From positions 37,155-101,154 of the forward strand of contig JARLHZ010000010.1 in the NCBI GenBank assembly GCA_031291995.1: 64,000 nucleotides of DNA. Direction: 5' to 3'. Source of the DNA: Candidatus Doudnabacteria bacterium. GTDB taxonomy: Bacteria; Patescibacteriota; Doudnabacteria; UBA920. Shown here one piece after another: positions 3,541 to 45,634 of the stretch. How positions within the stretch are numbered: position 1 is the stretch's first letter; each line of letters starts with the position of its first letter. The notes beneath the pieces were generated by a model, which saw nothing but the letters and a program-made list of their open reading frames with translations, searched no databases and was not told the DNA's origin. A program made the translations under genes and the position numbers.

Positions 3541-4167
3541 ATGGAAGTAATAGTTGGGTTAAAGCTTTTGGCATTACAAGCGGTAATGGCGGGGTTTCAA
3601 AGGATGTACCACTACCACTCTCAGCCTCTTTGGGTTGAATCGGTAGAGGTGGTTTCGTCCGAAAAAATCGAAGGCAAAGATAATTGGAACGGGAAGAAAT
3701 ATGTCTTTGCTATTTCAGCTCTTTCCCGGAACAGAATCGACTCATGCCGGGCTGAAATTTCTGTGGTCAAAAAACCCGCTCCTCAGGACTTCACCGTGGG
3801 GTTGGCAGGATGGTGCCGTAGCCCTGTCGACGTATTATATGTCAATGGCTTTGCCGACAGCTGGCAAGAAATGAATATATCGGTGTTCAGCTCCGACAAC
3901 CCCAATAGCCTGGAAATCGATTCCGAACGTCGACTGCCGTTGACGATATATGAGTTTCCCGTCGCCGAATTGGAACAGCGCGTCAATCAAAGGGTGCAAG
4001 TAAGGCTAAAAGATTGGCACTATGTTGAAGGATCGCTTAACTACTACGGGCCCGGCGCGACCAGACAAGGGGACAACTTCGTCATCATCGACGGCGGCCA
4101 AAGCACTTCGGTTCACATATCAGAAATTGCTCAAGCCTGGGCAGTGGATCGCAGACGACAATTTTGA
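3541..4167 (+). CDS. Hypothetical protein within a GC-rich island
   Basis: Long ORF in a locally GC-rich stretch; no recognisable motif. Confidence 0.4.
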   Translation: MEVIVGLKLLALQAVMAGFQRMYHYHSQPLWVESVEVVSSEKIEGKDNWNGKKYVFAISALSRNRIDSCRAEISVVKKPAPQDFTVGLAGWCRSPVDVLYVNGFADSWQEMNISVFSSDNPNSLEIDSERRLPLTIYEFPVAELEQRVNQRVQVRLKDWHYVEGSLNYYGPGATRQGDNFVIIDGGQSTSVHISEIAQAWAVDRRRQF

Positions 4168-4210: not shown

Positions 4211-4792
4211 ATGAAAATGCGTTACGCATTGATCTACGTGGCGGTCGTAATCATCGGTTGGTTCGTGCCGATTGCGATTACCGGCCAATCAGCACTTAAC
4301 AGCACCGCCGTGACGGCGGTGACAATCACAGCGTTACTGGCTTCGCTCTTGGTAAAGTTCGCGGCATTCGACCGCGCGGAGCGCTGGAACCAATGGGTTG
4401 TGCTGTATGTGCCCATTATGCTCCTGGCTTTCCTGATGGGCGTAGCCATAAAAGACAAAGACACCCTGAGCTGCATCCAGCTTGGAATCGGCTCGCTCAT
4501 CCACGTGGCTTTCTGGCTGTCGTCCTGCGAGTCCGACAGCCTGCGCCTGAGCGAATTCCGGGCGAGCAACGGCGCCGGCATGCCGCACACCAACGATTTG
4601 CTGTTCTCGCTGTTCCTGAACGAACATCGCGGCGCGGCGTCAAACATCGTCAAAAGCCTCGGCAAAGGCTTTCCGGTGAAACTAAAGGAAATTGCGGCAT
4701 TGCTGCCAAATCTTTCCGAGGAGTTCATCGGGGAAGTCCGAAAGGAAATCGAAATCTACCAAAGGAGGAAGCACGGCAAAATATTGCAATAA
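4211..4792 (+). CDS. Hypothetical membrane-anchored protein (2-3 N-terminal TM helices plus a soluble C-terminal domain) within the GC-rich island
   Basis: Hydrophobic N-terminus; several overlapping long ORFs in other frames indicate high GC; RBS-like ggaga upstream. Confidence 0.45.
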   Translation: MKMRYALIYVAVVIIGWFVPIAITGQSALNSTAVTAVTITALLASLLVKFAAFDRAERWNQWVVLYVPIMLLAFLMGVAIKDKDTLSCIQLGIGSLIHVAFWLSSCESDSLRLSEFRASNGAGMPHTNDLLFSLFLNEHRGAASNIVKSLGKGFPVKLKEIAALLPNLSEEFIGEVRKEIEIYQRRKHGKILQ

Positions 4793-4897: not shown

Positions 4898-5176
4898 TCA
4901 TTTGCGGACATGCTTACTTTTCTTGTATTTTTTTACCGATTCATGTAAAAAATCCACCATTTCTTTATGAGTATCAAACGGGCCATAAACTCTGCCGGCT
5001 CTAACATCTGCCAGACCCTCGGCAATTCCCTTGTCGACTAAATTTTTAGCCCTTAAAGTAATTTCACCTTTGTTGACGGTGGCTTCAAAAATATCGCCAA
5101 TGTTCACACCGGCTTTTTTTCTTAAAGCGACCGGCAGGGTGATTTGGTATTTTGTTTTAACTTTAACTAGTTCCAT
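4898..5176 (-). CDS. AbrB/MazE/SpoVT-family DNA-binding protein (antitoxin-like), likely starting at the internal Met MELVKVK
   Basis: ITLPVALRKKAGVNIGD swapped-hairpin motif. Confidence 0.55.
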   Translation of the reverse strand: MELVKVKTKYQITLPVALRKKAGVNIGDIFEATVNKGEITLRAKNLVDKGIAEGLADVRAGRVYGPFDTHKEMVDFLHESVKKYKKSKHVRK

Positions 5177-5242
5177 ATGATTACAAAATGTTAGAAAGTT
5201 AGACTTTCTTACATTATAAACCAAAATGACATTCTGTCAAAC

Positions 5243-5307: not shown

Positions 5308-5535
5308 TTATAAATTATTTAAAAAATCTTCCCGGTCAATTTCCGCTTCCCTTAAAATTGCTCTGAGCAATCCTCTGCCAATGTCTTCACCACGATGATC
5401 CGGTACGACTGTCGTACGACCATCGGGATGCGCAAAAAATCGATGAGAACCTGACTGGCGAATCTCGATGAACCCGAACATTTTTAAAGCGCGAATAACA
5501 TCGCGCGCTTTAAACATGGGCAAACGGGCAGACAT
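5308..5535 (-). CDS. hicA: HicA-family mRNA interferase toxin
   Basis: 75 aa; ...QSGSHRFFAHPDGRTTVVPDHRGEDIGRGLLRAILREAEI matches the YcfA/HicA fold; 4-nt gap to the upstream hicB. Confidence 0.75.
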   Translation of the reverse strand: MSARLPMFKARDVIRALKMFGFIEIRQSGSHRFFAHPDGRTTVVPDHRGEDIGRGLLRAILREAEIDREDFLNNL

Positions 5536-5538
5536 AAA

Positions 5539-5847
5539 TTACAAAGTTACCATTTCCATAGCTATAAAGCTGGGCTGATGGGACAAACCCAAAATTTTAT
5601 TCCTGTATGCAGAATTTTTTTTTGCAACCTCCAAACATAATTTTATGGCCTCTTTGATTCGCTTACGCAACTCGGTCAATGTTTTAGCCTGTGTATGACA
5701 ACCTGGCAATGTTGGTACCGAAGCTATAAAAAATCCATCCTCATCCTGTTCAATAATTACCGCGTAATTATTTTCCAAACGCGTTGAATAACCGACCATT
5801 TTTTCTCTAACCTTATTGGCGGGATAAATTTTAGATCTTTTCTTCAT
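5539..5847 (-). CDS. hicB: HicB-family antitoxin (may start at the internal Met at 5799)
   Basis: YAVIIEQDEDGFFIASVPTLPGCHTQAKTLTELRKRIKEAI is the HicB/UPF0150 RNase-H-like fold. Confidence 0.7.
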   Translation of the reverse strand: MKKRSKIYPANKVREKMVGYSTRLENNYAVIIEQDEDGFFIASVPTLPGCHTQAKTLTELRKRIKEAIKLCLEVAKKNSAYRNKILGLSHQPSFIAMEMVTL

Positions 5848-21763: not shown

Positions 21764-22129
21764 TTAGAGTTTGAACTCGTCAATAGACTCTTCGGAACTC
21801 TGGCTCATACCCATCGGGCTGCCCATTTGGCTGCCCTGATGACCCATACCACCGCTCATTTCGCGGCGAGGACCACGGTGAGAACCTTCCGGTTCATAGA
21901 TTTTCAAGTTCACACGGGCTTTATGCTTGGCGCCAACTACGCGCAATAAAGTGCGGATGGCTTTGGCCGTCTGGCCCATGCGGCCAATTACCTGGCCCAT
22001 ATCTTCGGGGTTGAGATGCAGAGTAATTAATACTCCCATTTCATCCACGACGCGTTCGGTCTTTACGTCTTCCGGATGGTCGACAAGAGACTTTACAACG
22101 TATTCAACAAAAGCTTGGTCTTGCTCCAT
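21764..22129 (-). CDS. KH-domain RNA-binding protein (UPF0109/YlqC-like) in the rpsP-trmD cluster
   Basis: GxxG-containing KH motif (VIGRMGQTAKAIRTLL); conserved position between rpsP and trmD. Confidence 0.7.
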   Translation of the reverse strand: MEQDQAFVEYVVKSLVDHPEDVKTERVVDEMGVLITLHLNPEDMGQVIGRMGQTAKAIRTLLRVVGAKHKARVNLKIYEPEGSHRGPRREMSGGMGHQGSQMGSPMGMSQSSEESIDEFKL

Positions 22130-22285
22130 AATAGTGCAATTTCTGTGATAGCGTAATTCTGCTTCGACCTTTTCGTTAAATTAGCGCGAGCTATCTTGGG
22201 GATATTATAGGCGAAAGCGGGCTTAGCTGTCAATTATAAAATCCCCAGATGGGAATCTTCTGGGGATTTAGAATTGAATTCTGAA

Positions 22286-41732: not shown

Positions 41733-43584
41733 TTAAAGATAGCCATTCCTGCTTTTCTCTTCCAAGGCATTTGCTAAAGGAGAATCTAGATTAAGAACCA
41801 CCCATCTTTTTTGTCCACCATGATACAATGTGTTCCATTTCATTGCCATAGGAATTCTTTTAGCGGCTATTGCTTCCTCAGGAGTTTGCCAGTGAGCGTC
41901 GTTTGTTTGAATGGCTTGCTCTAAAATTTGGTCTTCTGCTCGATTTAATCTTTCAACTTGCACCGAATACAATTCTCTGTTTGGACCTTTGGGATTTATT
42001 CGTTGGTCAGATATTCTTAGAACCTCCATTGCAAAATGTATGTCAGCCAAGTCTAAACTGCTTGCATCTGACTTTTTTATCATCTGGACAATCCGCATGG
42101 CATCTTGTTCGGTTGGCTCTTTAAAATCATCAACGAAATGCCCCTTAGAGTCACGCCCTAAAAGAGTCCCGTTATATTCATCTTCAAGTGCTTTTATAGT
42201 AACAGCATTGTCTTTGGGTTCAGCCATTTCTGTTTTGGCGGCAGAAAGCTTCCCTGTTAAGAAGGCATTGTAATCTGATTCTATCTGTTTAACTGTCCCT
42301 CGAGCTTTTTCCGCCAACTCATAAAATTTAGCCTTCAGGTTAATTTCATCGCCAGATTCTGAAAGCTGTTTTATTTCTTGCACGGCCTGAGCCATATCTG
42401 GCCCAGTTTCAGGTAGTCCAATCCTACAAACCTCACTGCTAATAAATTTAAGCTCGTCTGGGATAGTTGAAACTCTTTTAGGCATGGACATGCTCCTTGG
42501 CGGCGGTTTCATTGGGTCAAATGACCCTTCCGGCATTGGAGGACAATCTTGCAATTCCACTTTGTCAGGATATAATTTAATCAACGTTTTAAAAAGTTCT
42601 GCGTAATTTGGACTGTAAACTTCGCTAATCATCAATTCTAGTTTTTCGTCCCTGTTCTGTCTATACCAATCCAGAAATGATGCCATTAGGTGGTATTTTG
42701 TAATCGTCGAGGCATATGGATCGGTACTGCCCGCTTCCATAGTTTGAGCATCAGCCGTAAACAGTTGTTCGAATTTCACCTGGAAAATTTTACCGTCATG
42801 GGAAACCGCATTAGCCAAGGGATGGTCTGAGTGTTCGCCTTTGAGCCAATACTTAAAAGATTCTATAAACCTATCACTTGGATCAACCCCGGCAACCCTT
42901 CTTTCTACCATAGTTGTTAAACCCTCATTATAAAGAATACTGTAAAAATAACTCTCTGGCTCTAGCGTATGGGTGTACTCGTGGACAAATGTATCTTCTG
43001 GAGCTGCGTTGGCACCAGAAATAATATTTATGTTTTTTTTTGACTGCTTTTTTGTCAGTAAAGCCGGCCGTGGTCTCCGTGGCAATATCTTTAGAGGTAG
43101 TTGCTCCGTGAATCAGTATCGGCGGGACTTCCGCCTGGGTTGCTCTTTTATATTTATCTGGCAAAAATTTATCCGCCAGTTCAAAATCTTTTTTATATTC
43201 GCCCTTTTTTAAATAATTCAAAAACCTATCTACGAGTTGTTGGTCGCTTGGCGCAATATCGGGGTCAACATAAACTGTTAAGCCAGTCTCTAATACTTCT
43301 TTTCTGAATTTCCTTTTTATAACCTCGGCGACTTCGGGCTGGGTGCTAAATACTTCGCTTATAACGTTACTACGTTCTAAAATAGAAAGTTCCGCTAATT
43401 CACTTTTTGTTTTTTCGTCATTTTCTAGTAACTCTTTTCTTTTATCCACCTCGTCATTGATAGTAAGGGCTTCTTCATGGTATTCATCCATCTTCGCCCG
43501 TTTTTCAGCATCAGAAAATTGACCAAATTTTTCTTGGTCAACAATTTTGCTAAAGTCGAATTGTTCGTTAGATCCTCTCGGCAT
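41733..43584 (-). pseudogene. HExxH-motif protein gene split by a frameshift at a T9-10 homopolymer (track ORFs 41733-43085 and 42928-43584)
   Basis: Two overlapping same-strand ORFs; homopolymer tttttttttt at about 43033-43044; VHEYTH motif in the downstream part; AT-rich region. Confidence 0.45.
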
Positions 43585-44004
43585 ATAACCTTATTTGCTA
43601 TATTATATACCTTTTTGGTCGTATACAAAACCAAAAAGTTTTCCAATTCCCAGTGGATTAGCAAATGGATTTTGAAAAAATTAAAATTTCAATTACTATT
43701 TGTACGCAGTCTAAATATTCATTTGATCTATTCCCAGTGGCGCTTGCATTTGGTAAACTTTAAAGCCCCACATTAGCCGGGGTTTAAAGTGGCTTAATTT
43801 TAGGTCAAAATCAGATTTTAATCTTTTTCTATCAGTCCATGTTTTTGCAAAAATTGGACTATCGGCTTGGCGCATTTTAGACAAATAGAATAATGGGGAA
43901 CCGGACTTAAATAACCAATGCTTATTTCATTATCGTATTCAACTTCTTTGAAACAAATATCGCATTTTGTGATATACATAAATTTTTGGTTGTTTTTTTA
44001 TAAT

Positions 44005-44119
44005 TGACAAAAAAAATTGAACTGCTATAATTTAATTACTTTTGGGATATACCCACCGATCCGGAGTTTAGGCTCCGGTGATTATTTGGAAACTCGAGCA
44101 ATGTCTCGAGTTTTTGTTT
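44005..44119 (+). ncRNA. Candidate small RNA: consensus sigma70 promoter (TTGACA-16-TATAAT) followed by two hairpins and a terminator, antisense to the 3' end of the mazF-like gene
   Basis: ttgaca 44005-44010, tataat 44027-44032; hairpins ccggagtttaggctccgg and ctcgagcaatgtctcgag followed by tttttgttt. Confidence 0.45.
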
Positions 44120-44476
44120 AATTTCAATAAGATCCTTATTTTCCAACGTCGCAAGCCTCCTCTGAAACCTGTTTACATGAAACATTCTAATCTGATACAA
44201 AAGCACAAATTGAGTAACGCCATTAACAAGAACACTTGAAAACCAAGAACCGATTTTTGGTTGAGTAGATAGCGGTATGCCAATAAAACTGACTGACGAC
44301 AACTTCCTAACAACCAAGACAGGCCTTCTAAAAGTAACCCCTTTACCACATGATTCACTGCCGATATTTATTCCAACGGAACACCACCAAATATCCCCAG
44401 ATTTGAAAAGAAATTTTTCAGACCTCCTTTCTAAAGCTTTTTTCTTTTCATTCCAATTATCAAAATCCTTTTGCAT
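44036..44476 (-). CDS. PemK/MazF-like endoribonuclease-fold protein (orphan; no adjacent antitoxin ORF)
   Basis: SGDIWWCSVGINIGSESCGKGVTFRRPVLVVRK ... FIGIPLSTQPK resembles the MazF/PemK core. Confidence 0.5.
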   Translation of the reverse strand: MQKDFDNWNEKKKALERRSEKFLFKSGDIWWCSVGINIGSESCGKGVTFRRPVLVVRKLSSVSFIGIPLSTQPKIGSWFSSVLVNGVTQFVLLYQIRMFHVNRFQRRLATLENKDLIEIKQKLETLLEFPNNHRSLNSGSVGISQK

Positions 44477-44560
44477 TTAGGCCTCCAAACTGTCTATTAA
44501 CAAGCCAGAGGCCACATATTGTGGCCTCTGGGGTCTATAGATTTAAATTTATAAGCCGAC

Positions 44561-45634
44561 TTATTTTACTTCCACTTCATCGGCTACTTCTTCCGTCTGC
44601 TTGACCGGAATTGCGTCGCCCGCTTTAACTTTGTCGCGGACGGCTTTGTCCACGTCTTTAAAGACTTTGGGATTGTCGCGCAAAAATTGTTTGGCTGTTT
44701 CTTTGCCCACGCCAAGTTTCACTTCTCCAAAACTGTGAGTATTGCCGCTTTTTTCTATGACGCCGATGAGTACGCCCGTATCCAATAAATCCCCGGCCGC
44801 GCTAATGCCTTCGTTATACATAATATCGAACTCGGCAATTTTAAACGGCGCGGCAACTTTATTTTTAACTATTTTCGCTTTTACGCGGTTACCGATAATT
44901 TTATCGCCGTTTTTTATTTGCGCGTTGCGGCGCACCTCAATGCGGACGGATGCGTAAAATTTTAACGCGTTGCCGCCGGTCGTTGTTTCCGGATTGCCGA
45001 ACATAACGCCGATTTTCATACGGATCTGGTTGATAAAAATAACTGTTGTGCTGGTTTTGGAAATAATCGCGGTTAATTTGCGCAGCGCCTGGGACATTAG
45101 CCTGGCCTGCAGGCCCATGTGACTGTCGCCCATTTCACCTTCAATTTCGTTGCGAGGAGTCAGCGCGGCGACAGAGTCTATAACAATTAAATCCAGCCCG
45201 TTGGACCGAACCAAAGTTTCGCAAATATCCAAAGCCTGCTCGCCGTTATCAGGCTGTGAAATTAGCAGGTCTTCCAATTTAACGCCGATGCGTTTGGCAT
45301 ATTCGGGATCCAGCGCGTGCTCGGCGTCTATAAAAGCCGCGAGTCCCCCCCGTTTTTGTACTTCGGCTATCATATGCAAAGTTAATGTGGTTTTTCCGGA
45401 TGACTCCGGACCGTATATTTCAATAACCCGCCCCTTGGGAATGCCGCCAACTCCCAGGGCTAAATCCAAACTAATACTGCCCGTGGGAATGGATTCCACG
45501 TCCATGGTTTTGGAATCGGACAGCTTCATAATGCTTCCGGCACCGAACTTTTCCTGGATCTGGTCCATGGCGCTGGTTACGGCTTTCCACTTCCCGGCAT
45601 CAGCCGCCGGCGTTTTTGTTGTTTGTTTCGTCAT
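44561..45634 (-). CDS. recA: Recombinase RecA
   Basis: Walker [11 protein letters not shown]; conserved RecA blocks throughout. Confidence 0.97.

Follow-up and report, generated by a model that had tools for sequence, protein, structure and literature searches.

A MazF/PemK-family toxin gene with a conserved convergent small RNA as its putative antitoxin in a Candidatus Doudnabacteria genome

What restrains a MazF-like toxin that has no protein antitoxin beside it? MazF is the textbook type II toxin, whose antitoxin is a protein, and the question is raised by a solitary MazF/PemK-like gene at positions 44036-44476, on the minus strand, of a 64,000-nucleotide (nt) stretch of a Candidatus Doudnabacteria genome (contig JARLHZ010000010.1). 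We call this whole stretch the window and give coordinates as window positions, except where another locus or a plasmid is named. On the plus strand, a consensus promoter points into the 3' end of the toxin gene and precedes a predicted small RNA (sRNA) of about 80 nt. The original prediction, made from the sequence alone, had raised the possibility of an RNA antitoxin. That possibility is now supported by the conservation of the RNA, its strict linkage to the toxin, the missing protein partner, a strong RNA promoter set against a weak toxin promoter, a relative in which the toxin is dead and the RNA intact, and the precedent of an sRNA on the Campylobacter plasmid pVir. On these grounds we regard it as quite probable that the sRNA is an antitoxin or negative regulator of the MazF-fold toxin. 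The most likely assignment, judged from sequence comparison, is an RNA antitoxin whose class has so far not been catalogued; RNA-antitoxin systems as such are already known, and what appears to be new in this pairing with a MazF-fold toxin is the RNA family.

The sRNA promoter matches the sigma-70 consensus at 12 of 12 positions. Its -35 hexamer TTGACA (44004-44009, plus strand) is separated by 16 nt from TATAAT, and the -10 element is of the extended type, TGcTATAAT (44023-44031, with the TG at 44023-44024), so that the promoter as a whole spans 44004-44031. The original prediction had the sequence, the spacer and the strand right and placed the promoter one base too high. In homologous loci the position of the -35 element is conserved, and the form TGnTATAAT recurs in many of them. 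Perfect matches to the consensus are rare by chance: the window holds three, while shuffling of its 64 kb predicts 0.04, an enrichment of about 75-fold. The other two directly precede real genes, one encoding a MazE-like protein and one a KhpA-like protein with a KH domain, which indicates that this organism uses the sigma-70 consensus.

Transcription would start 7 nt past the -10 element and end in the U-run after the last hairpin, yielding an RNA of about 80 nt (44038-44119, plus strand). The segment 44038-44122 folds into three hairpins with a free energy of -28.8 kcal/mol (z = -3.25), and none of 200 shuffled sequences was as stable. The first hairpin, P1 (44044-44054, GGG-AUAUA-CCC), was delimited by folding and alignment, and its GGG/CCC pairs are nearly invariant among homologues. 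It is followed by an unpaired and nearly invariant junction in the alignment, J1/2 (ACCGAU, 44055-44060), and by the second hairpin, P2 (44061-44078), which varies in sequence from genome to genome while covariation shows its pairing to be always kept. A further junction conserved in the alignment, J2/3 (UGAUUAUU, consensus GUGAUnAU, 44079-44086), leads to P3 (44087-44119), an intrinsic terminator supported by folding, a terminator scan and covariation. P3 consists of two CTCGAG arms, a loop CAATGT and a U-run, and lies within toxin codons 120-130. The hairpin at 44087-44116 together with its T-run scored as terminator-like, and a U-run 3' of P3 is present on the plus strand only. An RNA of this length, ending in a hairpin and U-run, had been predicted beforehand, and the present fold gives it three hairpins, the last of them the terminator.

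Over 82 nt of cis overlap, the sRNA is perfectly complementary to toxin codons 120-146 (27 codons) and the stop codon, in agreement with the 25-30 codons first proposed. The original prediction saw no plus-strand open reading frame (ORF) following the promoter. Two mechanical ORFs exist, at 44017-44121 (34 amino acids, TTG start) and 44078-44239 (53 amino acids, GTG start), and the first of these begins 5' of the predicted transcription start. ARAGORN found no tRNA or tmRNA at the locus.

To place the RNA in a comparative frame, we fetched 80 genomic loci of toxin homologues (labelled L followed by a number) and read the strand opposite the toxin. An alignment of 32 RNAs analysed with RNAalifold yielded three helices, and a covariance model of the homologous RNAs recovered the element in 39 of the fetched loci and in the window, with 41 matches overall. 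In all of these loci the RNA, which we term class 1, lies on the strand opposite the toxin and at the toxin 3' end. Most of the loci belong to genomes of the candidate phyla radiation (CPR, Patescibacteria). The window contains a single copy, at 44034-44125 (95.9 bits, E = 2e-27). The shared layout is a promoter, then ACUUUUGGG-(4-5 nt)-CCC-ACYGAU, a variable hairpin, GUGAUnAU, and finally AGCUCGAG-CAAUGC-CUCGAG-UUUUU. A promoter matching at least 10 of 12 positions occurs at a fixed offset in 25 of the 39 loci, compared with 1.5% of random controls, and at these promoters the -10 element ends 10 nt 5' of the ACUU anchor. Because the arrangement of promoter, RNA and toxin recurs in about 40 other genomes, it is far beyond what chance would produce. 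In the class-1 loci examined, the toxin stop codon falls inside the region complementary to the sRNA.

Pair counting over 41 sequences confirmed that the RNA is under selection for structure. Bases were paired in 96.5% of cells, with compensatory changes at 12 of the 16 pairs; 0 of 500 shuffles reached any of the five measures, and slid controls paired in 18-60% of cells. P2 was paired in 100% of cells, and all five of its core pairs show compensatory changes. Pairing is better on the sRNA strand than on the toxin strand (96.5% compared with 88.6% of cells), since 50 cells with G.U pairs would become A.C mismatches in the toxin mRNA. One P3 pair alone is G.U in 22 of 40 sequences, again an A.C mismatch on the toxin strand, and P2 is often capped by cUUCGg loops, which are read on the sRNA strand. 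The RNA structure is thus selected on the sRNA strand and not on the toxin strand. With a positionally conserved promoter and a covarying, strand-specific structure in about 40 loci, the promoter-driven cis-antisense sRNA that the original prediction proposed from one sequence has gained comparative support. P3 has a peculiarity of its own. Both of its arms (44093-44110) are the palindrome CTCGAG, and the toxin strand reads Leu-Glu in each (K-L-E-T-L-L-E). Because the arms are palindromic, the helix can form on both strands, and P3 is a dual-coded RNA and protein element whose strand specificity comes solely from the G.U pair and the U-run.

The RNA is also constrained in its primary sequence. 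In a comparison of mean pairwise identity across 22 loci, the toxins were 62% identical in amino acids and 67%, 80% and 42% identical at codon positions 1, 2 and 3, respectively. The RNA leader, P1 and the junctions together reached 86%, and 91% where they lie beyond the toxin stop codon and are non-coding. The interior of P2, where pairing is kept, was 56% identical. Given that the unpaired RNA is conserved at 86-91% while third codon positions are at 42%, and given that some relatives carry the RNA module in tandem, we suggest that a sequence-specific recognition, probably by the toxin, operates on top of antisense pairing.

Neither the RNA family nor RNA partners of MazF-like toxins in CPR bacteria are described in the searchable literature as far as our search found. 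At gathering score and at E values up to 10, the only Rfam matches in the window were tRNAs located elsewhere, and sub-threshold matches to snoR11, Leu_leader and sX6 near the locus were judged to be noise. An additional helix, P0, formed by 5' CUUUU and an AGAAAG linker, was considered for the model and dropped, as it is missing from loci with short linkers.

The protein opposite the sRNA bears out the proposed MazF/PemK-like identity. The 146-amino-acid product matches the Pfam family PemK_toxin (PF02452) with E = 7e-10 and 39.5 bits (cut-off 23.1), and the match runs from residue 25 to residue 126 and covers profile positions 1-108 of 109, practically the whole domain. A check of the fold by profile search against the PDB, which is sequence-level evidence only, gave EndoA, YdcE, PemK or MazF as all nine of its best matches, the best at E = 0.003. 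In the profile alignment, R51 and S70 of the toxin align with the catalytic residues R25 and T48 of Bacillus subtilis MazF (PDB 4MDX). S70 is invariant in the toxin family alignment and R51 is conserved in at least 90% of members; the toxin is likely to be active. What distinguishes the subfamily is an N-terminal FDxWNxxKK helix, rich in lysine and aromatic residues, which classical MazF lacks, as seen in the alignment and an AlphaFold2 (AF2) model. The AF2 model, built on a 28-sequence alignment, reached a mean predicted local distance difference test score (pLDDT) of 55, too low for a fold search, with residues 125-146 below 50. We detected 336 homologues of the toxin, mostly in CPR genomes.

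The last part of the toxin is best understood from the RNA. The Pfam domain ends at residue 126, and the ORFs of homologues end anywhere from 129 to about 160 amino acids, with the DNA conserved throughout. The tail of the window protein, codons 127-146 and the stop codon (44036-44098, minus strand), therefore lies outside the MazF domain. The conserved tail 'NHQSRSSGSVGNPKSN' is present in some homologues, while others stop at about 129 amino acids. We rejected it as a protein feature, since homologues whose ORF ends before it show the same degree of DNA conservation; the tail is a reverse-strand reading of the RNA gene.

No protein antitoxin adjoins the toxin, and there is no upstream mazE or pemI. 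The gene upstream reads as recA, with a Walker A motif GPESSGKTT in its translation, and 3' of it lies a 12-bp GC-rich hairpin with eight G-C pairs and no proper U-tract (44505-44531, minus strand). When all ORFs of at least 45 amino acids around the toxin were clustered across 37 loci, no flanking protein family recurred in more than three, and those three were related genomes with the same gene order. The absence of an adjacent proteic antitoxin, claimed at the outset, therefore extends from the window to its relatives. A 53-amino-acid zinc-ribbon ORF on the other side of the module (43818-43979) was considered as a partner and rejected, with sub-threshold Pfam matches only (best E = 0.02) and no recurrence. 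Searches with the PADLOC defence models and NCBIfam returned no informative match.

The same region bears on how the toxin is expressed. A ribosome-binding site, GGAGG, is located 5 nt 5' of the ATG (44482-44486, minus strand). Between the recA hairpin and the toxin start, there is no promoter matching 9 or more of 12 positions, and across loci the 130 nt 5' of the toxin are unconserved and a good promoter is rare. Since the toxin has no good promoter of its own, its expression is probably low, and it may be transcribed by read-through from recA. Such read-through, if true, would couple the toxin to DNA-damage induction.

A search that started from the RNA led back to the toxin. We scanned metagenome contigs with a pattern for P1 and P2 and examined 80 loci of 120 matching stretches. 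As the pattern specifies only 19 bases, most matches were expected to be chance and were; the covariance model kept 13 true RNA loci among the 80. A full toxin gene lies convergent and adjacent in 10 of these 13, and in one more the contig is cut inside the toxin tail. Two further loci are informative in other ways. L105 (9497-9671) has lost the toxin codons from about 29 to 117 and has kept an intact RNA (94 bits) with its promoter, and a dead toxin next to an intact RNA is how a toxin-antitoxin pair would be expected to decay. The same locus contains, 150 nt away, another and only distantly related toxin homologue. In L116 (939-1035), the P1-P2 module is followed by another terminator, also GC-rich in sequence but different from P3, and stands next to a gene that does not encode a MazF protein, leaving an orphan RNA that has no toxin.

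Some class-1 loci contain two tandem P1-junction-P2 modules before a single P3, within one promoter-to-terminator unit. This is the case in L020 and L021 (3400-3500), L024 (400-530), L048 (3300-3420) and L026 (3400-3520), on the minus strand of each locus, and these loci span three separate toxin lineages. The tandem modules resemble a short type III repeat array. The window itself carries a single module, and 43500-44900 contains no tandem repeats. In L026, a weaker match to the RNA model (33 bits, 3620-3704, minus strand), essentially a P3-like terminator, lies about 180 nt beyond the main RNA and may be what is left of the 3' end of another toxin gene.

The class-1 RNA is missing from toxin relatives of 30-45% identity in Kaiserbacteria, Microgenomates, Gracilibacteria, Alphaproteobacteria and others, which carry a different convergent small RNA in its place. 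A convergent promoter matching at least 10 of 12 positions lies within 200 nt in 29 of 39 of these distant loci, compared with 4% of controls. Two additional RNA types were recognised. The second type, which belongs to these relatives and measures about 50-55 nt, has a promoter, the conserved hairpin (U)GGC-UUCG-GCC and a GC-rich terminator that shows covariation and extends as far as the stop codon of the toxin (loci L033-L080, for example L039 3384-3442 and L071 2742-2800; alignment A4). The third accompanies toxin homologues on 15 viral contigs and on plasmids of Campylobacter, Helicobacter and Nitratiruptor (IMG/VR contigs L203-L217, and L081 1885-1998). Here a TGnTATAAT promoter precedes an RNA of several hairpins, the last of which, CCCCGG...CCGGGAUA, abuts the toxin stop codon, as it does in the pVir sRNA CJpv3. 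None of the three RNA types matches an Rfam 15 family, at E values up to 10 in the window and at the thresholds used elsewhere. Since plasmids as well as phage or prophage contigs carry relatives, the toxin-RNA module is mobile.

The pVir locus links this arrangement to an RNA that has been detected experimentally. CJpv3 is a 77-nt sRNA on the minus strand of pVir from Campylobacter jejuni 81-176, from 31119 to 31043 (Dugar et al., 2013, PMC3656092, Table S12), found by differential RNA-seq (dRNA-seq) and Northern blot between pVir0047 and pVir0048 in the orientation '><>' (PMC3656092). We find that it is convergent to the PemK-like gene of pVir and 5 nt beyond its stop codon, and that its mapped start is 7 nt after the -10 element that we read on the pVir sequence. 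The product of this gene, pVir0047, is 37% identical to the window toxin over 115 amino acids (BLASTP, E = 2e-22). The toxin-antitoxin pair CjpT/CjrA is presumably the same as pVir0047/CJpv3. According to two sources, pVir is the origin of a system composed of CjrA, an antisense RNA antitoxin, and CjpT, a protein toxin (PMC10470494, PMC7826846, citing Shen et al., 2016, Mol Microbiol 101:909). Pfam scans of ten pVir ORFs did not identify the VirA/VirT pair.

The CJpv3/PemK-like pair is, on sequence grounds, the nearest relative of the window module, with a homologous toxin, the same layout and a non-homologous RNA. Both toxins share the N-terminal FDxWNExKK motif, neither has a recognisable adjacent MazE, and each is met at its 3' end by a convergent three-hairpin sRNA of about 77-80 nt with its own TGnTATAAT promoter. 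The RNAs themselves are unrelated: with filters off, the class-1 model scored the pVir RNA at 6.7 bits (E of about 1). They also differ in reach, in that the pVir RNA ends 5 nt past the stop codon of its toxin gene whereas the window RNA runs over the stop codon and 27 codons of its own, and the pVir pair is plasmid-borne whereas the window module sits on a CPR chromosome.

Measured against the established types of toxin-antitoxin systems, the module fits none completely. Type II systems such as MazEF and PemIK share its toxin fold family and the aligned catalytic residues, but the window locus lacks the defining upstream mazE or pemI, has an extra N-terminal toxin helix and is partnered by an RNA. 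Type I systems include the 3'-overlapping antisense RNAs of the B. subtilis pairs txpA/RatA, bsrG/SR4 and yonT/SR6, and SymE/SymR and RalR/RalA are examples with enzyme toxins. The window module agrees with the type I architecture in having a convergent cis-encoded RNA with its own promoter, an overlap with the toxin mRNA 3' end, and a strong antitoxin promoter alongside a weak toxin promoter. It departs from type I in the toxin, which is a 146-amino-acid MazF-fold protein rather than a small hydrophobic membrane peptide, and in an RNA whose sequence is more conserved across CPR lineages than the toxin codons, unlike typical type I antitoxins. ToxN, the toxin of type III systems, is a distant structural relative of MazF/Kid. 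Like the type III systems ToxIN, CptIN and TenpIN, the window module combines an endoribonuclease-family toxin with a structured RNA under strong sequence constraint, and tandem modules occur in some of its relatives. It does not have the type III architecture, because the RNA is convergent, downstream and single rather than a same-strand upstream repeat array that a terminator separates from the toxin; its toxin belongs to PF02452 and not to ToxN, and no PADLOC model matches.

One known RNA shares a name with the toxin. The pemK RNA motif, reportedly described by Weinberg and colleagues in 2017, is present in Rfam and named for its association with pemK genes. Compared by covariance-model match only, it has no match in the window at E values up to 10, and none in the homologous loci at E values up to 5 (five loci) or at gathering score (27 others).

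As we envisage it, the locus would be a self-contained two-gene module of the toxin-antitoxin kind, with a MazF/PemK-fold endoribonuclease on the minus strand and an sRNA of about 80 nt on the plus strand. The toxin gene, which has a ribosome-binding site but no good promoter, would be expressed at a low level, possibly through recA read-through, while the sRNA would be transcribed from its extended sigma-70 promoter towards the toxin gene and would end at the terminator inside codons 120-130. The module made of P1, ACYGAU, P2 and GUGAUnAU would be read by sequence and by structure, the most likely reader being the toxin, whose sequestration would resemble that in type III systems. In addition, the sRNA would pair with the toxin mRNA at its 3' end, in the manner of type I, and bring about cleavage of the mRNA or a non-stop message. 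Such pairing is suggested by the perfect complementarity, which takes in the final 27 codons as well as the stop codon, and cleavage of the duplex may leave a toxin message that has no stop codon. The two modes are compatible with each other. That both operate, with direct recognition by the toxin as the essential step and antisense pairing as a second layer, is the reading that we favour, though we stop a little short of calling it probable.

Direct recognition by the toxin is favoured by the constraint on the RNA sequence, the tandem modules, the orphan module of L116 and the N-terminal helix. Invariant junctions on either side of a helix that covaries freely and is capped by a tetraloop typify sites where a protein binds. 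The GAU at the 5' side of P2, in J1/2, and the UGA at its 3' side, in J2/3, could form tandem G.A/A.G pairs and a U.U pair; together with the three-nucleotide ACY bulge beside P1, these pairs may produce a geometry like that of a kink-turn (k-turn). Bolder, and on balance unlikely to hold in all its parts, is the proposal of a large uncatalogued superfamily of FDxWNxxKK MazF-fold toxins that would be neutralised by at least three structural classes of small convergent RNA instead of MazE, in which the CPR toxin would bind a k-turn-like module composed of P1, the three-nucleotide bulge, tandem G.A pairs and P2.

Several observations weigh against this dual reading. The AF2 model of the toxin is poor (mean pLDDT 55), the window holds one module and no ToxI-like repeat array, and a solitary MazE-like gene lies 39 kb away in the same window. 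The convergent 3' arrangement, kept across three unrelated RNA classes, is what antisense action by itself would predict. A host factor such as an RNase, rather than the toxin, could be what recognises the conserved unpaired nucleotides. The only relative that has been studied is assigned to type I, as CjrA is described as a type I antitoxin (PMC10470494).

The strongest alternative is accordingly that the sRNA acts in the manner of a type I antisense RNA and does nothing but base-pair with the toxin mRNA at its 3' end, making no contact with the protein. A duplex over the stop codon in class 1, or over the 3' untranslated region in the other classes, would lead to RNase III-type cleavage, decay of the mRNA or non-stop translation, and transcriptional interference from the strong convergent promoter might assist. 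The B. subtilis pairs txpA/RatA and bsrG/SR4 act through such 3' overlaps. The convergent position at the toxin 3' end remains invariant across RNAs of three unrelated classes and toxins down to about 30% identity, the toxin stop codon lies within the complementary region in the class-1 loci examined, and the promoter of the sRNA is strong while that of the toxin is weak or absent; all this is as expected if pairing suffices, and the type I label given to CjrA agrees with it. Yet pairing alone sets no constraint on primary sequence, and the non-coding unpaired RNA is 86-91% identical against 42% at third codon positions. The P2 caps are stable cUUCGg tetraloops, which are unsuited to kissing contacts, and neither the tandem modules nor the orphan module with its swapped terminator has an obvious use in cis-antisense control. 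The toxin, moreover, is a soluble nuclease fold of 146 amino acids, whereas type I toxins are typically small membrane peptides. We consider action by antisense pairing alone a serious possibility, if one that will probably prove insufficient.

If the sRNA paired with the toxin message in trans, the translation start would be another candidate site. We dropped this idea, as duplex energies were -20.8 for cognate, -20.5 for non-cognate and -19.4 for shuffled combinations and showed no difference. Elsewhere, the 5' end of the sRNA, UUUUGGGAUAUAC (44040-44052), matches plus-strand positions 43965-43977 at 12 of 13 bases, which are antisense to the start-codon region of the 53-amino-acid CxxC zinc-ribbon ORF (43818-43979, minus strand). 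This site could be a trans target of the sRNA; by a rough estimate a match of this size is unsurprising by chance, and the P1 loop is atypical here.

A second alternative would make the two genes a dedicated ribonucleoprotein or processing pair, in which the sRNA is substrate, guide or cofactor, for instance in an RNA-guided or RNA-gated defence, and the protein does not inhibit growth. Such a pair would equally show the strict linkage of RNA and toxin and the strong constraint on the RNA sequence, and the lysine- and aromatic-rich FDxWNxxKK helix, specific to these proteins and missing from classical MazF, as well as the relatives on plasmids and phage contigs, would suit it. We think it improbable, because the catalytic Arg and Ser/Thr of MazF are conserved, L105 shows the decay of a toxin-antitoxin pair with its toxin deleted and its RNA and promoter intact, no PADLOC defence model matches, and pVir carries a published RNA-antitoxin system (PMC10470494).

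A protein antitoxin encoded elsewhere might also hold the toxin, with the sRNA as a mere accessory regulator of expression. A candidate exists in the window. The solitary MazE/AbrB-type gene at 4898-5176 (minus strand; PF04014, E = 8e-9) has its own perfect consensus promoter at 5213-5240 and no recognisable toxin gene downstream, the next gene being a plus-strand, membrane-like ORF (4211-4792). In Myxococcus xanthus, the solitary MazF-mx is governed by the unlinked protein MrpC (PMC4803016). Against control by such a protein, the sole partner conserved with the toxin is the RNA, in about 40 class-1 loci and in most of the distant loci examined; the MazE-like gene belongs to a separate toxin-antitoxin cluster beside HicA/HicB, and PF04014 is a very general AbrB-type fold. 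It is possible that the gene encodes an orphan antitoxin, and unlikely that it is a trans partner of a toxin 39 kb away; the broader notion of an unlinked antitoxin is, in our estimate, very improbable. Finally, in an AT-rich region where hairpins form on either strand, one could imagine a chance promoter-like site beside hairpins that merely terminate the toxin mRNA or form its 3' end, but such a coincidence is effectively refuted by the comparative data, given a promoter that keeps its position in dozens of genomes, UUCG loops and G.U pairs that fit the sRNA strand only, a U-run after P3 on the plus strand only, the roughly 75-fold enrichment of perfect promoters in the window, and the experimental detection of the convergent RNA at the homologous pVir locus (PMC3656092).

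With an RNA antitoxin or regulator as the preferred reading, a whole subfamily of MazF proteins appears to be RNA-partnered, which blurs the boundaries of types I, II and III. RNA control may explain many database entries annotated as 'orphan MazF/PemK' or 'type II toxin'. To our knowledge, almost no regulatory RNAs have been reported for CPR lineages, and the family described here, of about 80 nt and absent from Rfam, is more conserved across them than its partner protein. If both the superfamily and direct recognition are true, these modules would combine the architecture of type I with the mechanism of type III, and the class-1 sRNA would provide the first case of an RNA antitoxin binding to a canonical toxin of the MazF family, in a system spread over CPR bacteria, Alphaproteobacteria, Campylobacterota plasmids and phages. 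With covariance models of these RNAs, toxin-antitoxin systems would be better annotated in plasmids, phages and metagenome-assembled genomes.

The surroundings of the module offer some further observations. Its 3' neighbours, two ORFs of 218 and 450 amino acids (41733-43584, minus strand), have no Pfam match. The interval 42-44 kb has the lowest G+C content (0.385) in the central part of the window, and may be an island acquired with the toxin-RNA module. Beside the MazE-like gene, a HicA toxin gene (5308-5535, minus strand; PF07927, E = 1.5e-21) has directly upstream of it an ORF (5539-5847) that we read, by its sequence, as HicB-like, and the HicA/HicB pair and the MazE-like gene form a small toxin-antitoxin gene cluster. 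The third perfect promoter of the window, TTGACA-N18-TATAAT (22204-22233, minus strand), precedes a KhpA/KhpB-type gene with a KH domain (21764-22129, minus strand; PF13083, E = 4e-22).

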